A stretch of DNA of 63,994 nt, filler included, from Asterionella formosa (GCA_002256025.1; 4 parts of 4 records of this genome joined end to end with filler, not necessarily neighbours in it); one strand, 5' to 3'; positions 2,291 to 61,034 are shown, counted from the whole stretch's first letter. Notes: a model not told the origin generated them from the letters alone. Numbers and translations: made by a program.

Positions 2291-2663
2291 GAAGACAATG
2301 ACAACAATACAGGTAATACTCATGGTCCACTTGCATGTTACTTCTGGTAAAACAATTTAAAAATGGCTGAGGTAGGAGTGCGCGCAATTTTCGGAAAATT
2401 ATAGGGTGCCCTTCATTTAGTCCGGATTTATCTACATACAACATGCATTATAGCAGCAGTTTAGTCTTATACGTCACCTTTTCCTTTAAAAGGCGGTTAG
2501 TACCTCGCGAAAATTAAGCTAAAGATCTCAATTTCCCGGCCTTCGCTCCGGGAAATGAGATCGAAACAAAACGTACAATACTGGTAAGCCTGCAATGCGA
2601 TGTTTGCCAACTGTCGTTGCCTCCGGTTATCCAAAAAGTGAATAAAGAAACTCTTCCAACGAC

Positions 2664-3635
2664 ATGATGCTAACTTGGTCAGGCCTATTTCTACTAGCCC
2701 TGCTGGTGGCAAGGAACCATGGCCTCTCGATTCCCATCGAGACGCCAATGAGGTTTGGCGAAAAGACCTCATCTGTCTTTTCCATAAAGGAAATGACGCG
2801 CCAATCCCGACGAGCCTTTCTTTTTCATTCTGCCGTTATCTCTGGAGCGACCATTCTATCGCCAATGCCATCCAGCGCTGGTGATCAAGACGGCCTCCTT
2901 TCGACGTCGGATGTCGCAGACCTGCTTCGCGTTGTTCCTACGTTTACCTTGGTCGACCCAAAAGGTGTTCCTTTCATGGTCGTTGGCGAAGATGCAAAGG
3001 TCACGGGCTATTTCTTCACTGAATTCGACGAAGCGAAACGAATTTTGGATCTTGCCAGAACGAGTGCTGATAGGGCGCTGAAGGAACAAAAGTCGGAGCT
3101 GAGACAGCAACGGAAACGGAAGAATTTACCGACCATGACAAAACAACAAGAGGACGACGAGATTGGAATTAATCCATGGACCACGGCTCGAATTTCCACT
3201 ATCACTTTAGATGTGGCAGTCACATTGGTGATCAAATCTGTTTCGTCAAGAAATTATTTTCAGGTCGCACCGTCTAATGATGATGTTGAAGACGCGTTAG
3301 CTTTGACGAACCAAACAGATCTGCCAGAAGGGAAAGTCCCGCTCTTTTATATGGCGAATTTTACCATGAACGATAAAAGCCCTTTGTACTTTCGCAAATC
3401 GGAGCTAGTAGCGGCTTTCAAGCGACTAAACCCCCAAAGTATACTGCCTGAAATCAAAGTTTCGGAACTTTTTTCCGTTCTCACGGAAATGGTGAAACCA
3501 GGAGGCACGGACGAGGAACTTAAATCATTGGTCTTTGTGGCACCACGAGAAAGCAATGTACATGCGAAGGAATGTGCAAAGGCATCCAAAGGAGAGACAC
3601 CGTTTCAACTTGGACAAAGAATAATTGTGCTATAG
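2664..3635 (+). CDS. Tic22-like plastid protein
   Basis: 323-aa ORF. Signal peptide followed by Tic22-type motifs LRVVPTFTLVDPKGVP, GYFFTEFDEA and VPLF. Confidence 0.75.
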   Translation: MMLTWSGLFLLALLVARNHGLSIPIETPMRFGEKTSSVFSIKEMTRQSRRAFLFHSAVISGATILSPMPSSAGDQDGLLSTSDVADLLRVVPTFTLVDPKGVPFMVVGEDAKVTGYFFTEFDEAKRILDLARTSADRALKEQKSELRQQRKRKNLPTMTKQQEDDEIGINPWTTARISTITLDVAVTLVIKSVSSRNYFQVAPSNDDVEDALALTNQTDLPEGKVPLFYMANFTMNDKSPLYFRKSELVAAFKRLNPQSILPEIKVSELFSVLTEMVKPGGTDEELKSLVFVAPRESNVHAKECAKASKGETPFQLGQRIIVL

Positions 3636-4683
3636 GTGTCAAACTTGCCTGCTGATATCTTCGACTGACAATACACCTCATTTCTGTCTCATGGACGAGA
3701 TGGTGCTTTTTATTCCTACAGGTTACAGGGAGTAACTTACACGCTGTTCTAGTGCTTTGTTTAAATGCATACATTTAAGTCAGTTTTGCTGTTGCTACAC
3801 CGAATACTAGCCTTCAGCATGAGTTTGCACAGCAACTAAGTACTCTGGTGTTTTCCTTAGCTACAATGATGTGGGTGTATGTCACTTTTGAAGGATCTAG
3901 ATATACTGTTGCAATGAGTTTTTGCTTGTCAATCAATGCGAAGGGGTTATTTAGGCAGTCATCATGTGGGACAGCAAGGCGAAACTAGGGAGTATCTGGA
4001 TTACCGTATACCACCAGGGGCTACTATATTGTCCGAATGCGACCTAGCACTCGGAGTACCCAGTATATAGTAAGTATATAGTAGAACCAGGGTACCAGGT
4101 ATACTGGTACCGGTCTACTGGTAAACTCGTCATTTTTCATGGTCTAGCCTTCTTCTTCAGCCACCAAAATACATTATCATTTCATGACTCCTATCATTTG
4201 GCGCTCTGCATAATTAGGTGAGTGAACATGCAGGACGCCTGTGTGTCTAATTGTTACTAGCAGTACCTGGTACCTGGTGGTAGGGGTGATCGGGATACTC
4301 ACAGCCCTTCACGAAGGAGGAGCGAGACCGTTCTTCTCGTTTTACGTGATGATTAATGATGGACATGTTGATGACATTACATACGGGTAAGGTCGTCCAC
4401 GTGTACGGTATATATAGCATAAAGAATTATTCCGTATGAATAAATACGGAATTATACCCTGTAATTCCGTAGCTATATTTATTCTATCATTTCGCTCAGC
4501 AGCCTTTGTTTAGACGAGCCCCAAGAATGGGAAGCAAATCGATGACTATGCAAAACAACAGTACAGAAGTCATAGAAGGGTGACTGTCTAAAACATAAAT
4601 CACTTTCACATTACATGTACTGTATTGTGGAATCTAAGCCATACGTATTGTCCCACCCACAAACTACAAAGCAATAGAGCGCA

Positions 4684-5913
4684 ATGAATGTAGCGAATGG
4701 CGATTCGAAAAAACTTGCGGTCTCTGGCATTTCTCCGGGCTACGGTAGCTACGACGATCACAATGGGTATGGTGCTTCCAAAAGTCTCATCGTAGACAAG
4801 GCCGTCGAACATCATGAAAACAGCCGTCCTACGAATCAATACGTATTGGTGAGTCAATTGCAGGAGATATAACGTGAATGTATATATACACAACAAACAC
4901 AAATGTGAACATGCAAGCTACTAGACTAAATCCATCCATCCACCAAACCATTTCAACCAACAATTACGGCACAGGGAGTCGCGTTCTTTTCATTTCTTGG
5001 CTTTACAATCCTTCAAACAGGCTTTGCCATTACGGCCAAATCGCAGGCCATGCTAGCCGACAGTGAAGCCATGTTCGTCGACGCTGGCACCTATCTCTTC
5101 AACATGGTAGCCGAACGGTTGAAGCATCGGGCCTTTAGTGAGAAGGAGTTAGCCATGACGCCAGAAGAACGGCAATTCACAAGACGATTACATCGACTCT
5201 ATTTAGAATTAATTCCTCCATTTATATCCGTGACCACATTATTGGCCGTCACGGTAACTACACTGCGCGATTCCATCTCAACGCTATTGTCAACTACCCC
5301 GCATTCAACTGACGACGATCCGGATTTAGCAATCATGCTTCTCTTTTCTATTTTGAATTTAATTTTGGACATGGTCAATGTGACTTGCTTTGCGCGAGTG
5401 GATCAGGCCGTCCTGACGCCTTTGAATTTTAAGGAATTGGAAAACCACCACGAGGTTTCTCCATTACTAGTGCAGGACCAGGCCGAAACAGAATCGGAAA
5501 CAAATACAATTCCTGAAAGTGACGAAGTTAGTGAGGACAGTTCATTGATTAATTTGAACATGTGTTCGGCATGGACGGTGAGTCAATTCATACATGTGCC
5601 TCTGCATGCGTTTTTCCCTTCTCTAATCAGCTATTTATTGAATTGACATGATGTTACCCTGGGTTTCACAAAACAGCATGTCTTCGCCGACACGCTCCGC
5701 TCTGTAGCCGTCTTGATTGCGGCTGGCATTGCATCTGTAAGCGATATTATTTCACCTGAAGCGGCCGACTCAATTGCCGCAGTCATTGTTTCATTCATCA
5801 TCTTGCTGTCCTGTCTGCCTCTCACCAAGGGTTTGATACACACAGCCATTGAAATTCGGCACATGCATGTACATGGGACTGTGGAATTGCATGAGATTAT
5901 CATCTCAGCATAA
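4684..5913 (+). CDS. Cation diffusion facilitator (CDF/cation efflux) transporter, 3 exons (4684-4848, 4975-5577, 5677-5913)
   Basis: GTGAGT donors at 4849 and 5578 and CAG acceptors ending at 4974 and 5676 give an in-frame splice. Motifs AMLADSEAMFVD and NMCSAWT|HVFADTLRS, with several hydrophobic helices. Confidence 0.85.
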
Positions 5914-7680
5914 CTAATGTTTCTTGCTATCATTGATTTTATTCGAACCCTGGTTAGAATGAAGGATTCTTTCACACATGTAACTATATAGGCAAATTGC
6001 TATAGCTTAATGCATATAGACTGCACATGCACAAAAAATGAATGAGAATACATGAGCTTGCTTGGTATTGAACTGAGCTTGCTTTCCAGGCCAACGTACT
6101 CAGACCAGTCTCCAGTTTTAATCAGGAATGGTTTCGGAGTCAGCAAGTTTGACAAAAAGACAGTGGTGAGTTTACTGGTATTTGGGGTTATGTTATAATA
6201 TCTGGGACTGCTCCATCGATCATGATCTAGGACCAAGAATTTCACAAATGGTGTTTTGGGGTGGTGTGGGTATTTTAATGTTTTGGCTACTGTACTCATC
6301 TGCACAAATCAAATGATAATAAAAATATTACAATCAAGCCAATACTCACTGCTCTAGAAACTAACTCATGACTAGAAAATTTTCCTGTGTCATTTTGGTC
6401 CTGTTACATTAAAGAGTTCCTTTTTCTCCACCCAATACATTGTCAAGGCTGACAAGTGCATTGACAGAACATCTACAGGTAGAAGCATAAGGCACCCATA
6501 TTCAAGACTTGGTGCATTTTTCAGAAGAAGATTCCAGGAACCCTGCTATGAGAATTTTGATGGTATCATCTGCAGGGATTATTCCAGTGAAGCTGATAAC
6601 AGGGAACAATGTGACACTAAGGGAAGGAGTAATATGATTGTTGTATACTTGTCTTAGCAACAATGTGAGCTCTAGCAAGGGATATACCTTTTTTCACTTG
6701 AGGAGCTCTGGAATGAGCAGAGAAAAAATCGGTTTTCCTTTCATGGATTTGTTGAGTGGATGAGCTTGAAACAGAACAAATGGATTGTATTCCCTGAATT
6801 TGCTGATTCTGTCATGTATGGGGCGGTGCTCCAGAATGTAAATAAATCAGGAATAGAAAGAGAGGATCCAAAGGGTTGGTTGTTGACAAAACAACATCAT
6901 CATCAACTGAAACATCAATGGAAGGTTAAAGCAGCAGTATAGTAATATCAAGCAATTTTCATCATTGCCGGTCCACCCACCTGATGGAATTCCTGATGGC
7001 AAGGAGCGTTGTTTTCTGAAAAACTTCTGACAACAAGCACCAAAATGGAATTCTGGGTTTGAATTCCTCGGAAATCAAAAAAATTTGTAAACAAGCAGGC
7101 ACCTCCTGAATGCGAATTTCTGACCGGGGGCCTTTCATCAGTGCACGTTGACACACATCATCTGTATTCAAATGTACTTAGACATGAAAACCCCAAGCTC
7201 CAATGTCTTCAATGCCCTCCTTGCCCATCCCATCCTACATCCCACAATGATGATTGTCGTCCACCATGATGGCACAGCAATATACGTTGCGCTTGACTGC
7301 TCCATGCCATGACCTCTTACTGACCCAAGAGGGCAACGAGGTTCAAAAAGTAGAGAAGAAGCGTCCAAAGGTCGACCTGGAAGGCAGAACAAGTCGGCGA
7401 TCCACACGGCGAGGTTCTTGCACAGCCTATGCACTGTCGTCTCTACCGCGTCGCCATCATCATCATAATCATCAGTCGCACTGGTTCATATCCATGCATT
7501 CGAATTGCTGGGAATAAGCAGCACTGTTAAGATCATCGAAGCTTTCACAGAATTGTACAGCAGAGTCAGCCTCCGAAATAACTCTATTTTGTCTGAGGGG
7601 AGCTGTGAAATCTGGCGACAAAATAGAGAGGATTTACTCGTTGAAGACTTACAAAATATATCGACATTGGAGCCAACACC

Positions 7681-8763
7681 TTGCAAGACGAGTCAAACTT
7701 TCCACTTGATTTAGTCGTATCACGTCCTGATTACAGCCCTGGCATTGACAAAATATCACCAGCGCGAACGACGCGACAAGCAAAGCTAAGACTCGCAGAG
7801 AATATCGTCATTGTTATTGACGACAGCGATGATGATTTTAAAGCGGCAAATTCCAGGGAAAAAGCATGTACCGTCGCGACTCCCACTCACGCCCAGCCTG
7901 ACCCGACTCCTTCGATGTTGCGCCATGACCTGGTCATGACATGTATGGGACCAGGCAAGGTTCTCTCGTCGCGAATCGACCGATACTCGTCTCATTCGAA
8001 TCAGCCAATCATCACCTTTCGAGTCCAACTGGAATTCGGGCTCTTGTATTCATGTCGCGTGGAGCCCCTGGAATGTTCAATACGGGGACAAGTGATTGTT
8101 CTTCAACGCGACAAAGTCAACATTCACATCTCTGTTATGATGCGACTGTGGCCAGGTGTGTATTTGAATGATTCATTGATTCAATTTTATCTAAATCATC
8201 TTCAACGTCAGCGTTCACATTGCTACTTCTTTGGAACTTACTTTTACACGAAACTATGTGAACTGCCTACAAAATCGATGGCAGCAATGATCCGACACAC
8301 CCTTGCTGGTTGGAACAAGTCAGTCGGTGATTTTTTGGATAAGGATATTTGGCTCGTACCCATTCATTTGCACTTACATTGGTCTGCGGTGGCAATTGTA
8401 CATCCAAGATCACTCGTAGATTCTACAGTTAATGGAACTATGATGTTCCACTTGGATTCTGGTAAGCGCTTTCGATTGCATCAGACCAAGAGTATTTGTA
8501 CCAGAATCAATCGATATCTTTGTTCCATGGCACATACAATGAACCCAACTCCAGCCACTATCTCCAAACCTCCTGTACCAGCACAAGCCAATGAGTCTGA
8601 CTGTGGTGTGCATATGCTAGAACTACTGGAACGAGTGGCACAAGAATCGTCACATACACTTTTGACGAAGGCACCATTTTCTAAAACATGGTTTGGGCAA
8701 CATGTGATTGATGACAAGAGAGTTGCAATAAAGAAAGTGATTTTGGATGCTGCTAGGAATTAA
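7681..8763 (+). CDS. Ulp1/SENP-family SUMO protease (peptidase C48); 5' end uncertain
   Basis: YLNDSLIQFYL, FFGTYFYTKL, HWS, HLDS and QANESDCG (His-Asp-Cys triad plus oxyanion Gln). The first in-frame ATG is at 7915. Confidence 0.85.
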   Translation: MQDESNFPLDLVVSRPDYSPGIDKISPARTTRQAKLRLAENIVIVIDDSDDDFKAANSREKACTVATPTHAQPDPTPSMLRHDLVMTCMGPGKVLSSRIDRYSSHSNQPIITFRVQLEFGLLYSCRVEPLECSIRGQVIVLQRDKVNIHISVMMRLWPGVYLNDSLIQFYLNHLQRQRSHCYFFGTYFYTKLCELPTKSMAAMIRHTLAGWNKSVGDFLDKDIWLVPIHLHLHWSAVAIVHPRSLVDSTVNGTMMFHLDSGKRFRLHQTKSICTRINRYLCSMAHTMNPTPATISKPPVPAQANESDCGVHMLELLERVAQESSHTLLTKAPFSKTWFGQHVIDDKRVAIKKVILDAARN

Positions 8764-9184
8764 GTGGATCGATTTTCAAAGGACTCTAGTTAGTGCACAT
8801 TGGTTGCATATTATATTTTATCTTTTCTTGAATACCAATACCGGTAGGCGATTTTCAAACTGGTTTGTTGAAAGATTAACAAGTATGGATGATTGATAGG
8901 GGATAGATAATATGCAACCCTCTGCAATCACGTACTTTGGCCATCAGTACTGTAAGGCTGATGTGAGAAATAGAACAGCTTCATATCAAAACAAGGTCGA
9001 CCTAAACAAGCAATTTTCTATGGAGCCTGACAGACTGCTGCCACGTGGAAGTAGTAAATGACCAAAAAACCAACTACCCGGTAAAAATATTTTTGTTATG
9101 CACAGGATTATCTTACGATCGATGATGGATGATGCTTTTGTTCGCACCATGATATGCAAACGCCATCGCCATCCCTGCAGTACA

Positions 9185-11377
9185 ATGACCGCTGCTCTGT
9201 TCCTACCGTTCTTAATAATTTTTGCTTCACATGCGTTTGCCTTTCAATCGCAATATGCCACAAAACCAGCACCTCAAGTGGTTCACAACTCGTGGCTCTT
9301 CTCGGCTGACAGCGACGATTGGAACGTACCGGCCGACGAAGAAGACTTGAATATCAAACCAGAACGATCACAAATCCCCGACTACATTGCTGCCTATCTT
9401 CGTAGAGAAAGCACCTCCCAAGGATTTTCGCCGACACACATGGTGGGAATACCGATGGACTCCTGTCATGAACTCCTGATTGAGTTAGAGTCGGTCCAAC
9501 GGGCCATTTTGTATCACTGCCCCGTCTTGGTGCACTCGTGCATCGTTGCCAGTATGACAAGGTTGCCTCTCCTTTATGTAGATGCATCCTTCCAACCATC
9601 GGGACGTGTCACGCGGGAGCTTCAGGAATTGACGGAACGGATTGTCAAAACGCACTGTTACACCGAACGAGCCGAATCGGACGAAACGGATTTGAGTGGA
9701 GCTGGTGCTGACGGATACCTGCCACTAACGTTGAATTTTCACAAGCTGGAAATAGACGGAGAAAAGCATGACGTCTTGCATACAAAGGCAGTAGAAGGAG
9801 AAGAAGGAACTATGAAACTGATTGCCATGGTGCAAGAGTTAAAGGACGCAATTCAGTCCAAGGGCTGGACAGTACAGTATCCATCAAATCCGCATCAAAC
9901 AGACTTTGTTCCTCGAATTCCATTTATGCGTATTCCAAAAGACTTTTCACGGCATCTTGAGGACATTCCAGAAAACGACTTTCATACTGCCGAACAAGTA
10001 AGTAAAGTCCCGCACAGAAGGAACATGTATCTTGCTTAGCTCTCATTCAATGCTTGTTCGCTTATTTTCTTCGTTTACATTTCACAGGGAGGAAATGGTA
10101 TTTCTCCAATATTTTGGTGCAAATGGTGGGATGACTACATGGGCCGCTCTATACGATTGCGAGAGGTAGGTATATATCCCAAACGACCGGGATACGATGA
10201 CATGGACGAATCAACTTTTTATCTTCCACATGAAACGATCGCATTGCCTAACGCAAATGAAAGGTTAAGCAAGATTGAACAAAAGCATGCAAAATACAAT
10301 GAAGAACGCATGGCAAAAGCCGAGAAATTTTTGGATCAAGATGATGCAGATGCGAAAGATACAATGGTGGATCAGTCGTTGGAAGCAAATCGTAAACTAT
10401 TGGAATCATTGTATGGCGCGGATAATATCCTTACTGATGGATTAGTAGTCGTTGGGGAGGAACCCTTTGTGAACTCAAACCAACAAGATAAGACAAAGTT
10501 GAAGCAATCTCCAGTTGACGATGACCGACTGAAGCAAGAAATTGAAGGTGAACATGTTGTTGTCAATACTGGACCCGTGGATGTAGAGGAAGGGAAGGAT
10601 GACAAGCCACTTCCTATTTCGTCTGTTTCTACAGAAAGCCCATCTCGGAAACCATTGAGCGATTGGATGGAGGACCGCATTCGAAAAATTGTTGAATCCC
10701 GAGGAAGTGCTCTGCAAAGGGAACAAGTGGGTATCAAACGGGAAAATCTCCCTTCGATCGAGGACAATCCAGTTTTGAATGCCTTCAAGGCAGGCACCCT
10801 GGTGAGCAAATCGGCTCAAACTTCTACGGAGGCAAATGCAATAATTGAACTCCCGCCATATCCTTCTAGACAGTGGTTTATCGGATTTTGGAGAATTGTT
10901 CAATCTCCGACGGGTATTGACGAGGATACTGGGGATGAGACTCAGACAGACAACCTTGTACTTCGAGCGGACGGGACCACATCGGGTGGACCAATTTTGA
11001 ACCAAGAATACCGACAAAGAGCAGCAGGGGGGACTTGGAAGTTCATTGAAGAAGCTAATGGAAGTGTCTTGTTGAGAATTAGACTCGTTATGCCCCCGAA
11101 GAAGGAGCGAATCTTAGTCATGGAAGGCTCAGTGACGCGAGGGAGCAATATCATTGACTCGTCTGCAAGTCTCTTGTCATCAACCGTCTTTGGAATAACA
11201 AGGGATAGCACGGACGATCAATCACTGCAGTGTCGAGGAGATGTGTGGCTAGAAGATGCCGTAACCAAGACGAACCGTAAGGGAATCGGGACTTTCTTCA
11301 TCGAAAAGCTTGAGACGTCCAAAAATCCTCGAGACTATACGATCACAATACCGAAACCAACTCGAAATCAAGACTAG
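9185..11377 (+). CDS. Plastid-targeted protein with an N-terminal AKAP7/2H-phosphoesterase-like region, 2 exons (9185-9997, 10088-11377)
   Basis: GTAAGT donor at 9998 and CAG acceptor ending at 10087 join ORFs 9098..10039 and 10139..11377 in frame. Presequence MTAALFLPFLIIFASHAFAF. PTHMVGIPM resembles the AKAP7 PTHF.SIP start. The domain call is tentative. Confidence 0.7.
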
Positions 11378-11720
11378 AACTACGCAAACGGTTTGCCCAA
11401 TTCTCGTGTGAAAGCAATGTTTCGCTTAGAGGGAGGTAGCTAAAACTTATAGTCACTCACTATGGAATGCCATTTTGATGGAGTAAATCTCATCACAAGT
11501 AATAATCGTTTTAGAATATCAATCACCACTTCCCGACGGAGCACTTTCTGAAATGTTCAAATTTCGGTCGCATTTTAAGAGTTAAACAAACACGACTTCG
11601 AACATGTTTCACTGTGCCTCTTCAATTGAGTAGTAATGTCAATCTCTAGTATGGGGTCTTGTTCAGGTTCAACCTTAGAAGTCATTTCTCCATGAAAGCA
11701 ATTTCACATTTTATTGTTCA

Positions 11721-44953: not shown

Positions 44954-46447
44954 GATTGTTGATTCTTGGTGTAATCGTGTTTGTTCAAAAAGGCTTCGAT
45001 TCAAGAATTGCGAGCGTTTCCCTTCCTTTTGCTTTCGATATTCTTTCGTCGAATTATAAATTGACTATTACTTGACAAGCGGGTGTTAGGCGGCGAATGT
45101 CGGAATGACTAGGATGTGAAGCGGTGAAACAAGAGATGCAATGGAACGAATTGGAGAAGTGGCTTCTCGTAGTCGAAAATCCAAAACAACGTTCACGGTT
45201 GTCTCCTTTCATTGAGCTGCGTATTACGTTCTACATATGTGGCGTGAATAAAAGTCATATCGGTAGTAGCTGGTACCTGGTACCAGTACCTAATTTCAAA
45301 CTTCTTTCTTCGACAAGTTCTCATAGCTGGTACCTGGTACTGTTAAGACGCCGTTGAATGATCATGTGATATCATGCCGGTATATTTATTCCGTACATGA
45401 AATGTACGTATCTTGTGGTCACCGCCATGTCCTGGTACTTACTAACAGTTCCAGCCCCTGGTGATGTACCAGCAAAGTGTACATCGAACACGAATTGTGC
45501 ATCACATCGATACGACATTTTGCCACAAGTCCTGTACCGGTATTGCAAGTTGCGTTCATTTCGTCAAAACTGAAATTTAGCGCTGGCAGGCACTCGAAGT
45601 CGACTCCTCCGGTAAGTGCGTTTCAATTCAACATTCAAAATTTCTAACGGTTTCGCGCTGGCCCTTTATGTCAATTTTATCAAAATATTTAATTATTTTC
45701 TGGAAAAACTGCTACCGGGTACTACGATTCTGAGTGTCAAAATTCCTTATTCCAGAAATCTCCTCATTCTTTACCTCTACCGGTACATGAATTTCAAATC
45801 AGTCTACCCTGGTACCTGGTACATAAACCAAGGTACCTGGTACGACCGGTCGTTTGAATATAGTACCTGGTACCAGGTTGTGCAAAAGTGCAAACGGCTC
45901 ACATGGAGCACTGCTGCCTTCAAATGTGCAAACTTGAACAAGGTGCCGGGGCACTTGCAACACAGCTTGGCTGTTAGACTGTAGATTTATATGCTAATCA
46001 CCTAGATGCTCTCCAAATTTTGAGATGTCATTACGAGAAATTGGGGGTTCTCGTTTCGGTACCTTGATTATTGGTATGTAACTTCTTGAAAAGAATAGAA
46101 TTTCTGGCAAGCATTTCTTGAGCAGAGGTACCAGTTTTAAATGGCTTTGAGCCATGTTATTTTATCATTTTCCAACTAATTCTTGAAGTATGCCAAAAGC
46201 CATCCCCACTATCACCTATTGGCATGATATTAGCTAGTTCATTAAGCTAGCTACTTGAGAATTAGATCATTTCTTTACTTGAACATATATTAACTGAGAT
46301 CTACTATCCATTTTAAAAGTGACAAAAAAGGTCAAAGTGTCTCAAAGCCATTGATTAAAATTTTACCATACATGTAGTTATTTTTATAGGCAACGGTTAG
46401 AAAATATTATATCGTCTGCATGCTTTTTCGCAGTTGTTGTATCATTT

Positions 46448-46960
46448 TTAGACTGATGGTGTTCTTGTTGGTTCTGTCTCCTTGTATTTTTTCGCAGTAG
46501 TTGTTGCATCATTCTTAGATTTGTGGTCCTCCCATCCTATCTTGTTATGTAATAGGAGAACCAAAGAACAAGGGTGCTGAGGAGGAAGTGGTGCCATTAC
46601 AGCAGTTGCAACGGGTACTGCAGCATCCTTGCCAGGCATCATGGTGTCATGGAATCTGGTAAGTAGTAGTTGTTTTGTTGTTGGTAATGGAAGATCACTT
46701 GCTTGCTTGTACCATATTGCCGTTGTTTTCGTTTGTGCTACTGTCCACTCAGCTGGATGTGTGTTCAGCGATCTGATTGCATAAACCTTGTTTGCAAGCG
46801 CCATGTGTGCATCTTTTTTATTATTCTCTCGCTCACGCTGCACTTCTTCCGCATGCCTCTCCCTTTTTAGCTGGCCATTGATCACTTCAGGACCCAACAA
46901 GTACCTGCCTGCAGCGACATGAATAACGACTGTGTATCGTTTATTGCTTGCAATCGCCCT
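46448..46960 (-). pseudogene. C-terminal fragment of a pogo-like transposase
   Basis: AIASNKRYTVVIHVAAGRYLLGP...KVYAIR...WYKQASDLPLPTTKQLLLTRF is homologous to the C-terminus of ORF 60231..61034 (AIDTHKRMTAGLHFAVGNTCLGP...KVQAIR...WYKRNGDAPLPITRQNLLARY). Confidence 0.8.
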
Positions 46961-46961
46961 T

Positions 46962-47138
46962 GGGGAATTGATTAGTTGGTTAGCTCACCTTCCAAGGTGG
47001 CGGGTTCGACTCCCGCATTCTCCACCTGCTTTGTTTATGTATTCCCTTGGGTTCCGGGTGGTGAGGCAGACAACAAGCAGGTATAAGGCCCTCTGGTATA
47101 TTTCCGGGAGATGCCGGCTCAATGGTATAATATTTTTT
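46962..47138 (+). ncRNA. tRNA-Ala-like structured RNA / candidate tRNA-derived SINE
   Basis: Acceptor stem GGGGAAT/ATTCTCC-A with G3.U, perfect T-arm GCGGG-TTCGACT-CCCGC (B box GGTTCGACTCC) and an A-box-like TGATTAGTTGG. Two downstream hairpins and a T6 tract ending at ~47138. Confidence 0.65.
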
Positions 47139-48003
47139 GCCACTTTTGGGCCGATCGCTATTTTCCGACGCATTTATCTGATTATCTAAAACACAAGACC
47201 TAATCGACAACTAGATATGTTGTATCCGGCCCAAAATCAGGATCAACTTTGTCGTAGTAAAAATTTTCATAACTGGAAAATTAGAAAACATTTATGTATA
47301 CATTGTGAATATTATATCATTAAGAGGCTCAAAGCCATTTCGAACTGGTGCCACCTAAAAACTGAGAGTCATCCTTATTTTACCCTATGTTACGACTCAA
47401 ATTATTTTTTCCGATTACCTGGTAATGTTGAAGCAAGTTCGAAGGTTATTGTAGCTCGTCCTCTCGGGTACTAGCTACTACATCTAATTATAACTATGGT
47501 GAACTCAATCTTTCTTGAGATATAAAATTTTCTAATGTCATTGTTTTGCCTCGCAACGATGGCTCTCAGTATATATGAGGAGTTTTTAATCTTCCATTTC
47601 TTCCCCGATTACCTTTGTTGCCACAAAATTATTTGTCCGTTACAGATTACTACCCATTATATATGGTCCCTTTCGATGTTGTCTTCCCATAATAAGAATA
47701 GTCGGTTTCGACAAAACTCTACTATTAATATTTGGTTTCGGGCCTAATGCAACAACTTGAGTTATTTATTTTATTGACGGTTTCAGTAATATTTAATTAA
47801 GTCTATCGCGTGACAGCGTACCACTTGTTTTTTGAAAATCCTCATACACAAAATATGTAGGCCATACAATAACTGCTGGCGATGAAGCTGTGTACCAGGG
47901 TACCTGGTACTGGTACCATGATTGGGAACTGTATTCTGCATTGTACTACAGAGTGTGATATTATAACACGCACTTTAGTAGCTAAGTCACTCCTGTAATG
48001 TAC

Positions 48004-48476
48004 ACAAGTCGACAGTGCACATACACACACGCTAATCAGGTTCGAGGCAATGGACAGTGGTTCCAACGAGCAAATGACTATACCACGACGGGTTCCAATT
48101 TTTCCAGCGGCAAACCGCAATGATGAAGGACACTTGTCCCTCAATTGATGAGGATGACACAGACACCGTTTTTTCCAGGAGCAAAGAGCAATGAAGAGAC
48201 CCACTTGTCGCTCTATTGATGGTAATAAAGATGTGAACGAGTTCAACAGTGCATACAAGAATAACATACCAATGAAAACAAGTCGACAGTGTGTGTACGC
48301 ACAGCACGCCAAGCAAGTTTGAGGCAACGGACCATTCCAACAAGCAAATGACGATACAGATATCAAATTTTCCTACAAGCAAACAACAATGAAGAGAGCC
48401 ACTTACTTTCGCTCTCTTGATGGTATCAAAGATGCGGACAAGTTCAATAGTAAATACAAGTACAGCATGCCAAATG
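48004..48476 (+). repeat. Diverged tandem duplication (unit ~276 bp)
   Basis: ACAAGTCGACAGTG...GAGGCAA.GGAC...AGCAAATGAC.ATAC and CAATGAAGAGA.CCACTT...TTGATGGTA..AAAGATG each occur twice (48004/48280 and ~48188/~48385). Confidence 0.8.
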
Positions 48477-50014: not shown

Positions 50015-51010
50015 CTACATGATGTACTTTTTCAGCTCATTGACGAGCTCACCAACCTCAGGATCATTCTGATATTTCAGAAAGGCAGCAGGGTTGGACA
50101 TGCATTCTTGAAGGGCTGCCATGATTTTGGGATTCGATTGAGCCTTGGCCATGATCTCGCGAACCTTTGGATTTTTTAGCATTTCTTGTGCCTTGCCCAT
50201 TACATCACCGCCACCACCCATGCCTCCGAATGGATTTGCTCCACCGCCCATGCCGCCAAAGGGATTTGATCCACTACCCATTCCCATATTCTTCAGCATA
50301 TCAGCTATACCTGCCATACCACCCATATCTGGCATTCCGCCACCCCCAAAGGGACTTTGTTGTTTTACTTCTGGCTGTTCTGATTGCCGTTTTCGTGGAC
50401 CTGAGCTATCGTCCGTCAAAACCTCCACGTTGGCATATTCGGCATAACCTTCTCCTCCACTACTGCTACTACTGCTATTTCCAGAAGAATTCTTCTTTGG
50501 AATGCCATCAACCCGAGCAATGGCGAGCGCCTTCACGAATTCAGATTTTTCGAAAAATGACTTGGTGGAGATGCCCATATTTTCCAACTCTTTCTTGATT
50601 TCACCTGCCTTCATGGCGTTGCATGCCTCCATTTCTTGGGCTAATCTGTTATCTCGTGAAGAGTTACTGCTGCTTGGGGGAGGACTGGCACTTCCATCAG
50701 TTGACGGACTGCTCGAAGTGGAAGTTGTCGTCGAACTTGCTTCTGGTGCTTTGGGTGTTCGTCCTTCTGATCGAGCTTGCCTGAGTGCGTCTATAAGTTC
50801 TTTCTTTTCCAAAAAGCTTTTTGTGGATATACCATACGATTCCAATTCCTTTTTAATATCACCTGCTCGCATCTCTTCGACATTTTGGCTGGTGGTGGAC
50901 CAGAGTCTAGCGTTGCGGCCAAATCGTGGAACGGATCCAACAGTAAAGGCGGAAGATCGCGAGACTAGTAGAGCCAAAACAGCGAGACGCTTGGATGAAG
51001 CAATAATCAT
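50015..51010 (-). CDS. Plastid-targeted STI1-domain co-chaperone-like protein
   Basis: Presequence MIIASSKRLAVLALLVSRSSA-FTV. Two M.AG.IKKELE..GISTKSF.EK.E...AL repeats, a GGM-rich linker and C-terminal STI1/DP-like NPKIMAALQECMSNPAAFLKYQNDPEV. Confidence 0.85.
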   Translation of the reverse strand: MIIASSKRLAVLALLVSRSSAFTVGSVPRFGRNARLWSTTSQNVEEMRAGDIKKELESYGISTKSFLEKKELIDALRQARSEGRTPKAPEASSTTTSTSSSPSTDGSASPPPSSSNSSRDNRLAQEMEACNAMKAGEIKKELENMGISTKSFFEKSEFVKALAIARVDGIPKKNSSGNSSSSSSGGEGYAEYANVEVLTDDSSGPRKRQSEQPEVKQQSPFGGGGMPDMGGMAGIADMLKNMGMGSGSNPFGGMGGGANPFGGMGGGGDVMGKAQEMLKNPKVREIMAKAQSNPKIMAALQECMSNPAAFLKYQNDPEVGELVNELKKYIM

Positions 51011-51608
51011 AGCTATTGCACTGATTTTAAATGGAATGCAATAATGTTTGATGTAACAATGGAAGGCGATATTATAAGAATGAATCATCATCCCTGCATA
51101 CGGACTTGCAAAAAAGAGGAGTATGTACTGTATGAATGTACAGATACCACGGTCCTGCTTTGTTTTGTGTACCTGGTAGCAGGTAGCAGGTATCTTCACC
51201 TGCAAGTGGTTGCGTTAATTTTGCTGAAACCATAACTTTAGCTATCTTTATCCCATATTAAATCCCGGTACCGGTAGTTTATATGAGCAAAATGACCGCA
51301 ACTCGTTGGGTACAAACGGTGTTGACACACCGGTAGCAGCAAGTTGCGGTCATTTTGCTGACATTGATAACGTGACGCAGGATGCGCGTTTAATGACATA
51401 GAAAACGTCATAAATTCAATCTTTGAAATCGTCAGTAGCACAAGCACGTTTTCCGTTTATCCTGGGTACCGCAATAGTACCGGCATGTATTTGCAATATC
51501 ATACATATATCACATGTCAAATATTTACTTACTGTGTATGGCTATCGTACATAGCTAAAATGCTGGTACAAATTTTCAGGGTAATCGATCGAGGTAGCCA
51601 TTGTTTAA

Positions 51609-54600
51609 GGTTCCTGCATTTCAACCCTAGTTTAGAGGTAGGGTTTAAAAAATAATACTGAGTCAGAGTACTCAAACACAGACTTCTTAGGAGTAAAACA
51701 TAAATGTGTATCGCTAAACGGAGCTTACACCAATATACACTCTTTCCATATAGGGGTACAGGTCAATGCTATATATCGTCAGGATATAGGATCTGGCGAG
51801 AAACTGCAGAAAAGAAATTCGGCTTTATAACTATGCAATAAAGACAAGAAATTTCGGGGGAAATCACTTTATTTGGCACCATAGTAAAAAAACCGAGTTC
51901 CTTTCTGCAGTTTCTTGCCAGAAGTTATATACTGATGCTACATCTAAGCCGCGAAATACGCCACTTTTCGAAATTTTTTCTACGTAGGAGTGTTAATTAT
52001 GTGGTACTTCACGTGAATTAATGCCACTCTTCCCGGAGAAAAGGTTACTTTTAACGGTTTCATGTGAAGATTTCACAAAAAACTATGAACTCGAGACTGA
52101 ATTAGTTGATGTTTCAAATAATTCATTTCAAAGTTCAACTAAGACCCTGCTCTCGTGGCTAATTCATTTACGACATGCATCTTCCTTTGTGAAATAGTAA
52201 GGATATTTGTGGTGTCTTAATTCATGCTACCAGGTACAGTTTATGGTTGTGCACTTCACGTAAATAATATTTACTGTTTTGCTGAACAAGATGACTCATC
52301 GTGGTTTCATGTGATGGCTGGTTCACAATCATACAGTTATTTCCATGGCAGGACTAGTTGATGTTACAACAAAACATTTTAAAAGTTCAAGATAAATTTT
52401 TTAAAGGATAAATCATTGCAAAAGATGACTTCACTACAAATTGTTTGATTGCAATCTGCCCTGAATTGATTGAGAAAAACGGAACGAAATGGATCTCGAG
52501 AAATATCGCGACATGATTCGTGATGTAAGCAACAACTAACCCTAATGAGGACAAAACAGGTACGGAACGAAACATTTAATATTGAATTTGAAATGCTTAA
52601 CTAAATATCTATTCGAATTAGAGTGTGTTATCGACTGCAAATCTTCGGAGTGCTATTGGGCATGAATTGATGGAGAAAATCGAAGCGATGTGGTTGTCGG
52701 CAAGTGGGTGCATGAAGCATATCAACAATCATCCTTACCATCGATATTGTCAGCATCCAATATGAATTCTCTTATTCTTTTACATAAACTATATTTCGTA
52801 TGAATTCTGAAGATACAAAACATATGGATAACATACCTGGTGTATTGTACATATGTCTGGAATGGCACCGTGATGCCGAGTGTGTTGACCTCAGCTAATG
52901 AATAGTAGGTATGGTACCTGGGACCAGGTACTGGTATACAAGGCCTACTCAGGGCTACTATGATACATACTACCAGGGCTAGTACCAGGGGAGTACCTGT
53001 TACCTGGTACCTTGTACCTTGGGTCTTTTGACGTTGCACTCAGATATACTAACAAATTGCTATACTGTATGGTACCACCAGGTACTCCTGGCTGGTAGGT
53101 ACCAGGTCATCGTTACAAGTGTGAGACTGTAGGTTTGCCCTTCCGGTATTTCCGTCTTTCCCTTCTTGTTACAATAGGAATTATTTCGTTCGTACTCAGA
53201 AACTGTACTCATTTCTACGTGCATACTGTGGAACTGCAGGTTTGCACTACCAGCATTGCTTCCCGTATTCCCCTTATTACAATAGAATATGGCGTTGGTA
53301 CTGTGAATATATTTAAGAGTAACCACTGGATGTGTCCTCTCCTTCTTGCCATACCGATATTTTGTTTAAGGTCACACTTGTAGCATCAAAAATTTTCCCG
53401 ACGAAGTAGGACTGCGCCAGGTTTTTTCATGTAGATTGTAGGTTCTGTTGGTACAAAGATGAAGTCATGGCTGCGCCAGGATTTTTGACCCTCTGAATTC
53501 ATAAAGACAACATTTAACCACCACTGTGCACCATATATGTTTTCAACATGGGGACGACCCTTAAAAGCAGCATCCTCTTCTAGCTTTTCAGCGCCTCACC
53601 ATTAACAAATCCTACATCAGCCAAGAACTCACATATTGTTTGTTGAAACAATAGAAGGTGAAATGACACAACATTGAGATCGTAAGCAATCGATGCTTTT
53701 AAGGTAAGATTTATTTGCTTGCTATTTTTGCTATTATATCACCAAGCGAGGGATAACTCATGATATGTCATGCTTTTGTTTTCAACATTCATTTGACATT
53801 TGAACAGGCCTTTTCAGAAAAGCAGTGTTCTTTGGAAAGTAGGAGTGATAGCAGATGAAATGACACAATATGGAGACCCGCAATGGAGGCCTTCAAGGTG
53901 AGCTTAATCTTCAGTTTTCATAATTGTAACAGCAAAGCGAGCGAAAAATCACGTGGTTCTGTTATTGTTCTCTACATTTATTTTACATTTTAGCCGTCCA
54001 TTTCACAACAGGAGCATTCTCTTGAATGCATCAGTGAGTTGCGGTGCTGCCTGGTGGCTGGCTAATGCCTGTGTTCTGCTGTCAATTTGACTGCTCCGTG
54101 AAACAGTTGAATAGCACATGTGTGTGTTGCTTTCTGCTGTTGCTAGTTCTATTAAATGAATTACTGACACACTGTTCTTTTGTAAATCTTTGTAGGTCAA
54201 TGAAGAAGTCATTTCAAGGACAAGGAGGAAGCCAGTGTGATACATTCCTGTTGCGATTTCGCACCATGATGCCTTTTCAAGAATGAATAATTTTTTCATT
54301 CAGAATGAACGGTTTCTGTTTGTCTTGCATTGTCCTTACAGACATCTCATGATGCCTGCCTTCTCAAGACTGAAGATGCCATTCTGAAAAAAAATCCTTT
54401 GTTTGATTGCATATCGAGATTTGTTTCCCATGTAATGTGAAATACCGGCAGTTGAATTAGAAATCAACATATTTGATTGTACTTTTAAATTACGTAAACA
54501 AATTTAATACATTACATGAACAAAATTATTATAAGGCAAAAAATGTGAACTAAATTACAGAATTAAGTGAAGTATTTCAAATAATTACGTGAAGTATTTC

Positions 54601-56229: not shown

Positions 56230-57930
56230 GAAATTTTTCATCTGTGTATCCAATGGATGATACAATGAAAGGAGCTTTCTCCTTCGATTTTTTTTGCCAA
56301 ATTTTTCATTAACCATTTGTATAATTTCGTTTCCTTTTCCTTATGATATTTTCCGTTACTAACACTTTTTCCAGACTTTACAGGACACCATGACTCAGAG
56401 TAGTAGTCGTGGCAACCAAACAAGTAGTTGATTGGTGCTTTGGAGGACACGGTGAATTCGGTTAGAGAGAGGTTCTGGTTTTTTCAATCCATGCTCCATA
56501 ATATATCTTTAGCAGGAGACAATCTGCTTTGAAAGGTCGCTCTACACAGGCTGGGCCATTGGATTTCAGAAAAGCAGGGCGGAGAAGAATGCGTATCCTG
56601 TGCGGTGGATTGGAAAGAAACCTTGGTTCTGGAATGTGTAGTGGAAGGCATCCTTTGTCAGGTTTTTTAACCATTTAATGTCCTTGGCCATTGAAAGTCA
56701 GACTGTAGATTTGATGATTCCTTATAGGACCATTTGGAGACAGCTCAAATTGTAGAATCATCATCACAGATGATTGTTGAGTAGATAACATTGTATTTAG
56801 TAATGGCATCAACAATCATTTCCACACCCACATCTGGTTCCATTGCCTTTGAACTTCCAGTTACATGATTCTTGGAGCAAACATAATGTTTAATAGGTTT
56901 CTTGTGCCGTATAGCCCTGTCGCACACATAACAGACCTTTGATGTTACTCGTGTAGCCACCAATACAGAATGCATGTCCACTTACGGAGTTGCATTTATT
57001 CCCACTGGATCGCTGCTGCCATCCCATATCATAAGTAACGGTGAGTTGCGGCATATTGAGTACAGACATGCGTTCTGTAACAGGTAGACTATTCCACCAC
57101 TGGAAATCTCGTCCTTTGTCAGCCCAATCGCCGCGTTCACGCACATTCAGTGTTTGATATATTTCCTCCCGACAAGCCTCTTCCATAGCAAGAGCTGTGG
57201 TTGCCACTTCCACCTCACCAAGTTTCTCTTCTACCGCAGTGAAATTACCTTGGGTTGACCAAAATCCAACTGCAAGAGGTAAGTTCATTGCGGAACAAAC
57301 AATGTCGGCGTTACCAGGTCCCAAGAATCCAGCTTCGTGACAACCAAGAATAAACTGCTGGTTGATTGCAAACTTTTTTGCTTCTTTTTCTTTATCTCAC
57401 CATGGTCTTCATCTTCGTTGTTGCAGCTTCTTGCAGATTCGAGTTTAGCAACCTGTTTTTGGCAGGTCAAACATGTTATTTTGATGGCACTTGCCAACCC
57501 GTAGGTCTCCGATGACACGACAATCAATGGTTGCATTACTGATTTTTCTTACAAGGCTTGTTCCAAGAAAGAGTCACATTTCTCTGCCATTGTAATGTGG
57601 TAGGCACTATTGTTTTGAAGATAAGTTACAAAGGCACGACAGTTTGTTTACTATATTCGTCAACAAATGTACTAACACATGTTCTGCAAAACACATTTTC
57701 CTGCAGCAATGTCGACAACGAAGGATAATCGATGACTTGATTCCTGCTTTGCTGAAAAGCTGGTTGAATGGTAGATGTGATTGTTGCAGGAGGAGGTTAT
57801 TTGATTGTAGGACACCACCAATTCTGATTTTCGTCGTTGACTATATTCTGACGTCCATGACCACCAACTCCAATTTCTGCTAAAAGACGGCCACCACTGG
57901 AGCGCGGTATGTTGCTTTAGTTGTCTATGT
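56230..57930 (-). pseudogene. Kolobok-type (often annotated 'Mutator-like') DDE transposase, disrupted
   Basis: Broken frames contain ETYGLASAIKITCLTC, VTYDMGWQQRSSG..NSVSGH, SKVCYVC, CSKNHVTGSSKAME, IICDDDST, FLSNPPHR and LFGCHDYYSESWC. Confidence 0.85.
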
Positions 57931-58591: not shown

Positions 58592-60187
58592 GATTTTGCT
58601 CAATGCCAAAACACATTATAAATCAGGAGTATGCCAACATGTACCATGCTCATGGTTCGTGTTTATGCGTTATATTGAATCTACGCTGATGTATGTTGGT
58701 TTCATAAAGATCAGCGCAGTTCCAGCAGAGTACCGGTAGTACATATTCTCGGTTCATGACGATGGAAGACTGGATGAAACTAGTACCGGTGTACCGGTAC
58801 TGATTTTACCTCCTGGTATGGTACATGTAATACGTGTGGTTCAAGTGTGGCTGGTGTGATTTTACAAGACCGGAATACTTCAGCCAATCTGGAGCAGGTA
58901 AGTAAATTCAATTCAACCAATCAGAATATGTGTAGTGATGCGGCAAAGTACCCTGGAGTCTTTTCGGACTGAGAGTAACATACCTACGCAAGACTCTAAG
59001 TCTGCGAGAACGTTTTGCACATACAAATTCCGATTCCAATATTTCGGCGACTGTTGAAAAAGCCGATCGGGTCGACTTTTTAGAGGAGGATTGCTCTACA
59101 TCTGCGGGGTTTCATCAAAATAAAAGTAGATAGCCGTGTACCCTATAACGTCAGGAGTTCAATTCTGGAGAGAAACTGCAGTTATGTATTGTAGATTTTT
59201 AGAAAAGCTTCATAGCCCCTTTTTTTTGTGACTATTTTTGCGATAGTTACGAATCTACGATACATAGTAACTGCAGTTTCTTTCCAGAAATGAGGTCCTT
59301 ACCATATCCGAAGATAGAACATACCCCTAAGTCGACCCATGACTGTATCTAAGCATGTGCAAAGTGGTCGTATTGGTGAAAGCTAATTTTACCTTTAACT
59401 ACAATATTTACTTGTACGTAATGTGTGGATTAAGGTACATCATATAATTATTTTGGGAAAAAGGACCTCGCAATGTGTAACTGCGGGGCTGCAACCTTAA
59501 GCTAGTAAGTATAAATTATTTAGCTCAAATGTTGCGATTTCTTTCTGTAAAAAAAACGCTAGAGTTCTTGTGCGCGGCTGCAGAATCCTGCATCATCATG
59601 CTGTCTCCGCCTTGTTGACCATCAGCCATACTAACTACTAGGTACCGGTATCGAAAATAACGAATTTCTCCATGGAAAATGAAAACGACGCTAGTATACC
59701 GGTAGTAGCTTTGGTACCGGTATGCTAGATGATAACTATAGTTGAAACACATAGAGATTCCTGATTCCTGATCAGGTTATGAGTGTCAATATATTTTCGC
59801 CTCCAGTGACCTGATTAGGAACATGTACCACAATCCACTAGATGATTGATTCAAGATTACATGGTTAAATATCGCGTGTAAAATGCCACAGTTGAGAGAG
59901 GAACTTTCCGGAGAAGTTCTCTCTAACCTGTTAATTGGACTCTAGAAGACGATCAGACCTACCTAGAAGCCAAATCAATAAATGATTGACTAGACAATTA
60001 CAGATATGTCCGCAACATCAAGGAACATTAAAGAAGCAAACTAGATATGATCTAGTTATGATTAACAGGATCATTCTGTAAGCAGTCNNNNNNNNNNNNN
60101 NNNNNNNNNNNNNNNNNNNNNNNNNNNNNNNTTAATTAATTAANNNNNNNNNNNNNNNNNNNNNNNNNNNNNNNNNNNNNNNNNNNN

Positions 60188-61034
60188 GCACCTCACACAA
60201 GCAAAGAGAGACTTACTCACCAAGAAGGCTTTGTACCATCTTCCATTTGCAATTGAGAAGACAGATGTAGTTGGAATTGTTGCACATGCTTGGGAAAAAA
60301 GTTTTGCGAGATTACGCACAAACAAAAAAGCGGTAGCAGAGCGAGGCTGGGGACCTTTGAACTATAATTGTTTGTTGAATCCTGAAATACAGCTGACAAA
60401 ATTTGGTGTTGTCCCATTGAATAGAATCTCACACAGCAACAGAACCTCTATTACACCTGACCAGCTCAACCTGCGAGAAGGACTTTCAGGAACTCTTACA
60501 AATCAAATCGTTGAATACATAAACAGAGAAGATGTGCGAAATGGTAATGATGCAGCAGAACATGCCAGGAAAAGAAAACAAACAGCACAAGCAGCAATCG
60601 ACACACACAAACGAATGACCGCAGGACTGCACTTTGCTGTTGGAAACACTTGTCTAGGACCACCGCTTTTTGAGCATATGCTGGAAATCAAACGCCGGCA
60701 TGAAATCCAGGAACAAAACAAGGAGCAGAAATTGAATCAACGGTTTTTTGAATTGTCACAGAAGGTACAGGCCATCAGAGAGACTGGAAAGGAAGCTGGA
60801 AGCTACAACGTAGCTGAACTGAAAACAATGGTGACATGGTACAAGCGCAATGGCGATGCGCCGCTTCCAATAACCAGACAGAACTTGTTGGCAAGATACT
60901 TGGAGACTTGTTGCCGTGGAGAAAAGCATTCTCCATATCCAATTTGGCCTCTTGATGTTGTGCTTGTGGGAGGGCAGGAGCTTAGTAGGGATGAGGGCGA
61001 TATTGCAGTGGTGTTGATAGGCACAAGCATTTAA
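60188..61034 (+). pseudogene. C-terminal half of a pogo-like transposase (5' part lost in the gap; may be intact)
   Basis: Open frame from the gap. IVAHAWEKSF...KAVAERGWGPLN resembles the post-DDE segment of pogo transposases. Homologous to 46448-46960. Confidence 0.7.

Follow-up and report, generated by a model that had tools for sequence, protein, structure and literature searches.

A probable tRNA(Ala-like)-derived SINE fragment inside a putative DNA-transposon remnant of the diatom Asterionella formosa

SINEs with a tRNA-related head are known, for example, from oomycetes and plants. A different kind of tRNA-like element, the mascRNA/MALAT1 type, is represented by single conserved loci that lie behind an A-rich triple-helix element. 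In the available full text of the literature, SINEs of diatoms and other unicellular algae were found only as automated "putative SINE" calls (PMC5859163, PMC7466962), namely 13 copies with 1,454 bp in Phaeodactylum tricornutum (PMC5859163) and SINEs newly seen, also by automated calls, in Cyclotella cryptica v2 (PMC7466962). The locus described here lies in a stretch of Asterionella formosa DNA of 63,994 nt (GCA_002256025.1), which is referred to as the window. An earlier note had interpreted 46962-47138 as one miniature tRNA-Ala-like RNA with a structured tail inside a transposon, probably a young SINE that is transcribed by Pol III and possibly alanylated. For its relatives, contigs of four public runs, of which X1, X2, and X5 are DNA and X20 is RNA (metatranscriptome), were aligned to 45800-47700 at 80% likeness, and the family data are summaries of these short contigs, apart from L001, a single metagenome contig that was found with the hallmark pattern CACCT-N4-AGGTGGCGGGTTCGA and is the only relative compared as DNA. 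According to our best reading, the segment from 46962 to about 47082 (~121 nt) is probably the 5' portion of a single copy of a highly repeated, tRNA(Ala-like)-derived retroposon of the SINE type, located at a deletion junction in a remnant bounded by terminal inverted repeats (TIRs). On this reading the unit at 46962-47082 is a rearranged relic and not a gene.

The tRNA-like head and the hairpin behind it

The 63-nt unit of the earlier note, with a G3.U acceptor stem, a discriminator A, a T arm, and CACCT-TCCA-AGGTG, is readily read from the sequence, and it is followed by a long hairpin and a distal tail:

46962 to 47024, plus strand: tRNA-like head of 63 nt, from sequence reading and the Rfam tRNA match, starting at the repeat boundary 46961/46962 and common to L001
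46962 to 46968 (GGGGAAT) with 47017 to 47023 (ATTCTCC), plus strand: acceptor stem of 7 bp with G3.U70
46968 to 46980, plus strand: degraded A-box region, part of the head
46986 to 46990 (CACCT), TCCA, 46995 to 46999 (AGGTG), plus strand: mini-hairpin of 5 bp with a 4-nt loop, abutting the T stem
47000 to 47004 (GCGGG), loop TTCGACT, 47012 to 47016 (CCCGC), plus strand: T arm, from sequence reading
47003 to 47013, plus strand: B box GGTTCGACTCC, within the T arm
47024, plus strand: discriminator A, from sequence reading
47024 to 47082, plus strand: long irregular hairpin of the repeat body with the closing helix ACCTGCTT (47024-47031) / AAGCAGGT (47075-47082), from the minimum free energy (MFE) fold, z -2.04
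47083 to 47138, plus strand: distal tail with the second hairpin of the earlier note and T6 (47133-47138), probably outside the tRNA-headed unit, fold z +0.73

Directly after the acceptor strand GGGGAAT, TG and then a D-loop-like stretch, ATTAGTTGGTTAGCT, can be read. When 46700-47400 was searched with permissive thresholds, the Rfam tRNA model (RF00005, gathering score 29) aligned end to end (model positions 1-71) with exactly 46962-47024, giving 25.4 bits and an E-value of 0.0064 (701 nt searched). Deleted in this alignment are most of the anticodon arm and, of the D arm, the 3' half, and AGG.G of the mini-hairpin falls in the variable region. The 19-mer AGGTGGCGGGTTCGAYTCC is present in five loci of viral contigs (six matches), all of them inside phage tRNAs called by ARAGORN (Ala, Thr, or Val), in which it covers positions 43/45 to 61/63, that is the variable loop and the T stem and loop; these are ordinary phage tRNAs and served only for the tRNA numbering of the motif. 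Since both the Rfam alignment and the phage tRNA numbering put AGGTG in the variable loop, the head can be assumed to be a tRNA minus about 8 nt between D arm and variable loop, of which the leftover CACCT happens to pair with AGGTG. The AGGTG strand of the mini-hairpin thus appears to be the former variable loop, which does not agree with the earlier view that the unit has none.

The head shares with canonical tRNAs the 7-bp acceptor stem, the 5-bp T stem, and the TTCGANN-type T loop, and has a 5-bp stem with a 4-nt loop instead of a 7-nt anticodon loop. The checks with ARAGORN and Rfam that had been proposed earlier yielded no tRNA gene: ARAGORN called no tRNA or tmRNA in the 63,994-nt window, and Rfam at gathering thresholds gave no match in it. 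With the score of 25.4 bits below the required 29, a canonical tRNA gene at 46962-47024 is ruled out. Matches to tmRNA models were insignificant (12.6 bits at E 3; 11.9 bits at E 0.14, in the searches of the window and L001), and so were matches to plastid UTR families, which were found on the opposite strand only. The head is nevertheless more than a chance likeness: besides the end-to-end Rfam alignment, the 18-mer of the T arm occurs once in the window at up to three mismatches (0.01 expected). No second copy of the unit was found in the 63,994 nt.

The Pol III consensus is TRGCNNAGTGG for the A box and GGTTCGANNCC for the B box. Scored against this consensus, the B box is perfect in the window (47003-47013) as well as in L001. 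The A box agrees at six of the nine specified positions in the window, or at seven if one inserted base is allowed, at eight of nine in L001, and at all nine in one contig insert of the DNA run X2. Downstream of 46962, the first run of at least four T in the window is T6 at 47133, and Pol III, if initiating in the window copy, would stop there; this T run most likely lies in an unrelated module.

Folded alone, the long hairpin (z -2.04) was equalled by 7 of 200 shuffles. The same number equalled the 63-nt head (z -1.81), whose MFE structure keeps the acceptor stem and lacks the T arm, and the whole 179-nt unit had a z of -0.65 (47/200 shuffles equal). For the distal tail, taken as 47083-47140, the z was +0.73 and 151 of 200 shuffles were equal; the pairing CTGGTAT/ATGCCGG is absent from its MFE structure. 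Because the distal tail folds no better than shuffles and without this pairing, the structured tail is real only as far as 47082. In the sequence itself, every element listed in the earlier note can be read at the positions given there, among them the long hairpin (47024-47031/47075-47082) and the T6 at 47133-47138. The long hairpin is supported as a conserved part of the element and as the start of a tRNA-unrelated body: its closing helix is retained in both MFE folds, as ACCTGCTT/AAGCAGGT in the window and as ACCTGTC/GACAGGT in L001. Pairs 6 and 7 are changed on both strands between window and L001 (C-G to T-A and T-A to C-G). Loose ends of contigs at 47028 (24 contigs in X1, 14 in X2) start with T, as L001 does, and therefore the helix version of the window is the derived one. 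The two compensatory changes may be seen as the best hint of a constraint on the RNA, in a comparison of two sequences, which are too few for statistics. The invariance of the mini-hairpin stem is uninformative either way, and in L001 this stem was fixed by the search pattern.

The putative transposon remnant around the unit

The unit is surrounded by the following features:

46127 to 46172, plus strand: left TIR, arm of a 46-nt inverted repeat, 76% complementary, with a depth jump at 46120
46448 to 46960, minus strand: C-terminal remnant of a transposase-like gene, within ORF 46448-46984, homology from residue 9
47307 to 47352, minus strand: right TIR, partner arm of the 46-nt inverted repeat

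In the window, the 27-nt core of the inverted repeat is present only at the two arms (0 expected). Contig depth shows the host element to be multi-copy, with an abrupt left edge near 46120, and no clear target-site duplication is readable at its ends. For the minus-strand ORF 46448-46984, 107 homologues were found at E<=1e-3, 36 of them at E<=1e-10, and the protein-family match starts at residue 9, which corresponds to nt 46960. In the alignment all homologues continue N-terminally (..ARNGVN..RRKR..TA..), whereas the ORF of the window matches from SPRAIASNKR onward. Using tblastn, 19 of 20 homologues of at least 200 aa matched 46400-46984, and 17 of these 19 start at or below 46960; the exceptions, P0039 and P0086, align up to 46984 and 46978, respectively. 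The earlier observation that the unit starts where the transposase homology breaks off is thereby confirmed. As the 46-nt inverted repeat bounds 46127-47352 and the ORF starts in the middle of its homology, the unit appears to sit inside a TIR-bounded remnant of about 1.2 kb that retains only the C-terminal part of the transposase-like gene.

The designation "transposase" for this ORF family is a lead: Pfam gave no match above cutoff for any of 14 longer homologues or for the ORF itself, and P0086 had no match when the limit was relaxed to E<=10. An upstream region LLLDGHGSRF ... GVPYGTSYWQVGD is present in the longest homologues, P0086, P0033, and P0082, and we take it to resemble catalytic blocks two and three of pogo/Tc1-type DDE transposases. 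In the Atlas, P0086 adjoins an unnamed cluster labelled Bacillariophyta at 0.97, with DDE_1 clusters reaching only 0.82-0.86, which is likewise a lead.

Two other explanations of the boundary were rejected. A simple insertion with an intact far side was not found, as the 15-nt continuation motif had three matches in the window at up to three mismatches (3.3 expected), none near 47000-47400. An intron boundary does not apply either, since neither the paralogue at 60189-61034 nor the homologues are interrupted here and contigs continue in frame. This second, diverged transposase-like paralogue (60189-61034, plus strand) is matched by 18 of 20 homologues in tblastn (60192-61007), from about residue 249 of P0086 to the C-terminus; on the 5' side it is truncated by N runs (60089-60187) that hold the TTAATTAATTAA linker, and it has no DNA similarity with the copy at 46448-46960. 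A weak tblastn match of P0086 at 48294-48013 (E 0.57), located among tandem repeats, was set aside as chance. In that area, the direct repeats at 47997-48404 (families D3 and D8) are diverged and spaced by 71, 198, and 274 nt; long, spurious minus-strand ORFs overlap them, and they possibly form a satellite-like array.

Further repeats are present in and around the host element. The transposase-like ORF has a 22-nt direct repeat (46424-46445 and 46488-46509, 86% identical, 64 nt apart) at its 3' end and shortly beyond it. The TIR of the host element begins with GGTACCAG, and motifs of the GGTACCTGGTACC type recur at 45260-45880, 47885-47910, and 52987-53116 in direct and inverted arrangement (families D1, D2, I4, and I7). 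To the right of the right TIR, 47352-47530 is multi-copy in X1 and X2, with a summed depth of 23,000-132,000 in X1, and 12 contigs of X2 start matching at 47351 with unrelated letters upstream; the host element may lie in or beside another repeat. Elsewhere in the window, the minus strand carries an ORF fragment at 56893-57396 with a Mutator-like transposase domain (Pfam, E 3.2e-10), a DNA-transposon remnant, and an ORF at 50018-51214 in which an STI1/HOP DP domain passes the Pfam cutoff and a SAP domain narrowly misses it (23.0 vs. 23.9 bits). The N-terminus of the latter ORF (..LLVSRSSAF/TVG) resembles the ASAF-type plastid-targeting motif in signal peptides of algae with secondary plastids, and together with a Tic22 match at 2646-3632 this ORF fits a plastid-bearing host. 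For the SNF2 ORF the Atlas label goes no further than Eukaryota; judged from the sequence, a diatom host is a lead given by the Bacillariophyta label of one Atlas cluster and by the Tic22 match.

An interspersed repeat family and its relative L001

To the region 45800-47700, 6,573 contig pieces of X1 were aligned. Their summed depth was 3,100-11,500 over 45800-46119 vs. 30,000-536,000 over 46120-47460, with a jump to 169,000 at 46120-46183, a peak of 349,000-536,000 over 46952-47079, and values below 50,000 beyond 47400; since summed contig depth does not equal copy number, the family size is given only as "on the order of hundreds." One flank contig of X1 with a perfect match had a depth of 957. 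Position 47010 in the T loop is covered by at least 115 contigs in X1, at least 87 in X2, at least 8 in X5, and at least 59 in X20. The window has a C at this position, which is T-loop position 59 and not a conserved tRNA position, and about 98% of the X1 depth reads T, so that the C is a private base of the window copy.

The contigs also reveal the boundaries of the family. Those with a match starting at 46962 have unrelated letters upstream (13 contigs in X1, 14 in X2, and 8 in X20, agreement 0.44-0.48), whereas those matching to 46961 continue consistently (19 in X1, 13 in X2, and 10 in X20, agreement 0.67-0.73); two contigs of X5 likewise continue, with the end placed at 46958 (agreement 0.93). 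Translated by hand on the minus strand, the continuation past 46961 reads ..RQQKETAL directly before RAIASNK, which resembles ..NETALRAIARNK in P0015 and ..KETALKVIASKNK in P0012. Because of the consistent run-on to the left and the unrelated flanks that begin at 46962, 46961/46962 is a true junction between the transposase-like gene of the host repeat and the first base of a separately interspersed repeat. The family thus begins, at its 5' end, with the first G of the tRNA-like head. As is typical for tRNA-derived SINEs, many interspersed copies with unrelated contexts and a common 5' end at the head are found in the contigs and L001. Loose ends at 46995 (23 contigs in X1, 15 in X2, and 8 in X20) represent a commoner subfamily with the D region ..TTGGTTAGCA and the mini-hairpin CACCT-CATG-AGGTG, in which the stem is that of the window and the loop is different.

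On the right side, 28 contigs of X1 with loose ends at 47099 enter from a different upstream sequence (agreement 0.83). As the stretch from about 47099 rightwards is thus joined elsewhere to another conserved upstream sequence, it is a different repeat module, which would most simply be the other end of the host transposon, and it is most likely that the second hairpin and T6 belong to another repeat module. Altogether at least three different sequences are found downstream of the shared module: that of the window, that of L001, and that of loose ends at 47087.

L001 matches the window in BLASTN from 46945 to 47082 (L001 500-640, 107/142 identical, E 3e-22). From 46962 on, the identity per 40 nt is 0.75, 0.81, 0.62, 0.28, 0.47, 0.42, and 0.33, and beyond 47082 it is 0.38 vs. 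0.30 +/- 0.08 in shuffles, 37 of 200 of which were equal. A 252-nt element (46962-47213) homologous to L001 throughout was therefore rejected, as its 3' half is at shuffle level. L001 has the same anticodon-arm deletion and hairpin as the unit of the window, as well as the same 3' acceptor strand and discriminator; its first base is unpaired. It has a 3-bp D stem GCT/AGC, the loop AAAG, and a T stem with one G.U pair. ARAGORN called no tRNA gene in L001, and the Rfam tRNA model is absent among the L001 matches listed at E<=1, from which two lower-scoring matches of the same clan had been left out. No TIR motif was found in L001, nor any transposase similarity (lowest E-value for the 107 proteins, 0.019).

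In L001 the tRNA-like unit is immediately preceded by four tandem units of about 52 nt (329-517). The 12-nt 5' flank AATTTCCTGTCT recurs as the 11-nt AATTTCTGTCT at 770-780, about 251 nt downstream and after an A/T-rich end; a direct repeat as good as this was found in 14 of 5000 shuffles. It contains an indel, and its 5' copy lies inside the last unit of the 52-nt tandem array. Judged by this sequence, the direct repeat seems to delimit a stretch of about 251 nt that bears the marks of an element inserted by target-primed reverse transcription. For the window copy, a target-site duplication was not found within three edits in 47025-47400 using its 12-nt 5' flank, and it has no A-rich tail. 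Further searches outside the genome added no relative: the hallmark pattern had no match in viral contigs and two in contigs of prokaryote genomes, both GC-rich bacterial sequence unrelated to the family, a stricter 28-nt pattern of T arm and acceptor had no match in the metagenome scan, and the spurious plus-strand ORF across the unit (46923-47189), compared with the protein collection in search of other copies, had no match there.

Of the earlier interpretation as a SINE, the tRNA origin, the multi-copy and interspersed nature (at least 115 contigs of X1 at 47010, unrelated flanks at 46962, and L001 in another context), and the 5' end at the head stand. The extent of 46962-47138 as one unit had to be given up, as similarity to L001 ends at 47082 and the 28 contigs of X1 join 47099 onward to another sequence. 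The attribute "young" is not supported, because the window copy is without a target-site duplication and has a degraded A box and a private base at 47010.

The proposed Pol III transcript fared no better. In the metatranscriptome X20 the depth over the unit is 777-957 vs. 2-7 in the left flank, and the ratio of depth between unit and transposase part is similar to that in the DNA run X1. The contigs of the RNA run thus mirror the DNA copy-number profile, and they read through both boundaries of the unit. The signal, which could be DNA carry-over or read-through transcription, does not speak for a discrete Pol III RNA. For the 46962-47138 unit, transcription by Pol III, youth, and alanylation are unsupported, and there is no sign of a functional RNA gene at this locus.

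Origin of the locus, competing readings and known systems

A retroposon origin would account for the locus in the following way. The head would descend from a tRNA with alanine-type acceptor features (G3.U70 and A73) that lost about 8 nt of the anticodon arm, so that CACCT now pairs with AGGTG, and that kept the T arm with the B box; better copies of the family would also keep the full A box. Master copies would be transcribed by Pol III from the internal A and B boxes, and a LINE enzyme would reverse-transcribe the transcripts into new sites. Among the 28 ORFs of the window scanned against Pfam, no LINE or reverse transcriptase was found, and the mobile-element matches were the Mutator-like fragment at 56893-57396 and the second transposase-like paralogue. 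One copy may have landed in, or been joined to, the transposase-like gene at 46961/46962, in antisense orientation. An internal deletion of the interrupted-gap-repair type would later have cut out the upstream part of the gene along with the 3' section of the repeat and joined the remainder to the other end of the transposon near 47083-47099. The product would be the non-autonomous element of about 1.2 kb at 46127-47352, itself possibly copied.

Alternatively, the module could be a cassette of DNA-transposon-derived repeats, MITE-like or mosaic, which is spread by a transposase or by recombination and gap repair. This is unlikely. It would explain why the window copy lies inside a TIR-bounded multi-copy element and has neither a target-site duplication nor an A-tail, and also why the module is joined to several different downstream sequences, as in mosaic repeats. 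However, in three runs (13, 14, and 8 contigs) the match begins exactly with the first base of the head and is preceded by unrelated sequence, and L001 contains neither a TIR motif nor a transposase. Target duplications of cut-and-paste transposons are usually 2-9 nt long, and the 11/12-nt direct repeat of L001 exceeds this usual length.

The idea that the locus is a gene copy of a functional family of tRNA-like small RNAs, either with a mascRNA-like RNase P/RNase Z signal or as an alanine-accepting mini-tRNA, is very unlikely. The acceptor stem with G3.U70 and A73 is intact, the stem of the mini-hairpin is the same in the window, L001, and the loose-end consensus of X1 and X2 with the loops TCCA, AAAG, and CATG, respectively, and the long hairpin contains the compensatory changes, all of which would be expected for such a family. 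But the conservation of the mini-hairpin stem in L001 is not independent, being fixed by the search pattern, and the first base of L001 is unpaired. Moreover, the X20 depth follows the copy-number profile of the DNA with contigs reading through both boundaries, the A-rich tract that lies upstream of mascRNA loci is missing, and a mobile element would readily account for hundreds of diverged copies with unrelated surroundings. A single decayed tRNA-Ala pseudogene with hairpins beside it by chance would agree with the one copy in the window, the Rfam score below the tRNA threshold, and the folding of the distal tail at chance level, but is almost certainly wrong, as it is contradicted by the at least 115 contigs of X1 that carry the unit and by L001, which shares the anticodon-arm deletion and the hairpin.

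Returning to the SINE-type retroposon, it can be imagined that the 121-nt module, retained across subfamilies and species through selection on its RNA structure, is the conserved core of an undescribed diatom SINE superfamily, with transcripts that are cut by RNase P and RNase Z, CCA-tailed, and possibly charged by AlaRS via G3.U70. We regard this as distinctly unlikely; if true, these algae would contain an abundant tRNA-mimic small RNA. As a tRNA-headed family with copies on the order of hundreds, whose head is defined and whose hairpin is conserved, it would provide a concrete and characterisable example of an algal SINE, and in freshwater algae it could serve as a marker system for typing strains and following genome evolution. 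For annotation, the lesson is to mask the locus as a repeat and to call it neither a tRNA nor a novel ncRNA gene.

Compared with described systems, the family resembles the diatom "putative SINE" calls as a short non-LTR-type repeat in a diatom genome (PMC5859163, PMC7466962); in the available text of these papers the calls are described without structure or sequence, so that the likeness is by description only. With the tRNA-like domain of tmRNA the head has in common an alanine-type acceptor stem (G3.U70), a T arm, and the lack of a normal anticodon arm, but ARAGORN found no tmRNA, the Rfam matches were insignificant, and the setting is a eukaryotic nuclear repeat. The likeness to mascRNA/MALAT1-type elements concerns the length of about 60 nt, the presence of acceptor and T arms, and an anticodon-arm hairpin that is shortened and directly adjoins the T arm. 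In contrast to those, the unit described here is multi-copy with unrelated upstream flanks, and by sequence reading no A-rich tract is present in 46900-46961; the multi-copy distribution and the missing upstream tract argue against membership in the mascRNA family. The nearest known kind is the tRNA-derived SINE (SINE2/tRNA). The family differs from such SINEs in its head, a 63-nt mini-tRNA without most of the anticodon arm, and in that the window copy is 3'-rearranged inside a DNA transposon, the family being known here from DNA copies and from the one relative L001. It agrees with them in having a tRNA-related 5' head with A- and B-box-like motifs, a tRNA-unrelated body, a high copy number, a 5' end at the first base of the head, and, around the one complete-looking relative in L001, flanking direct repeats.
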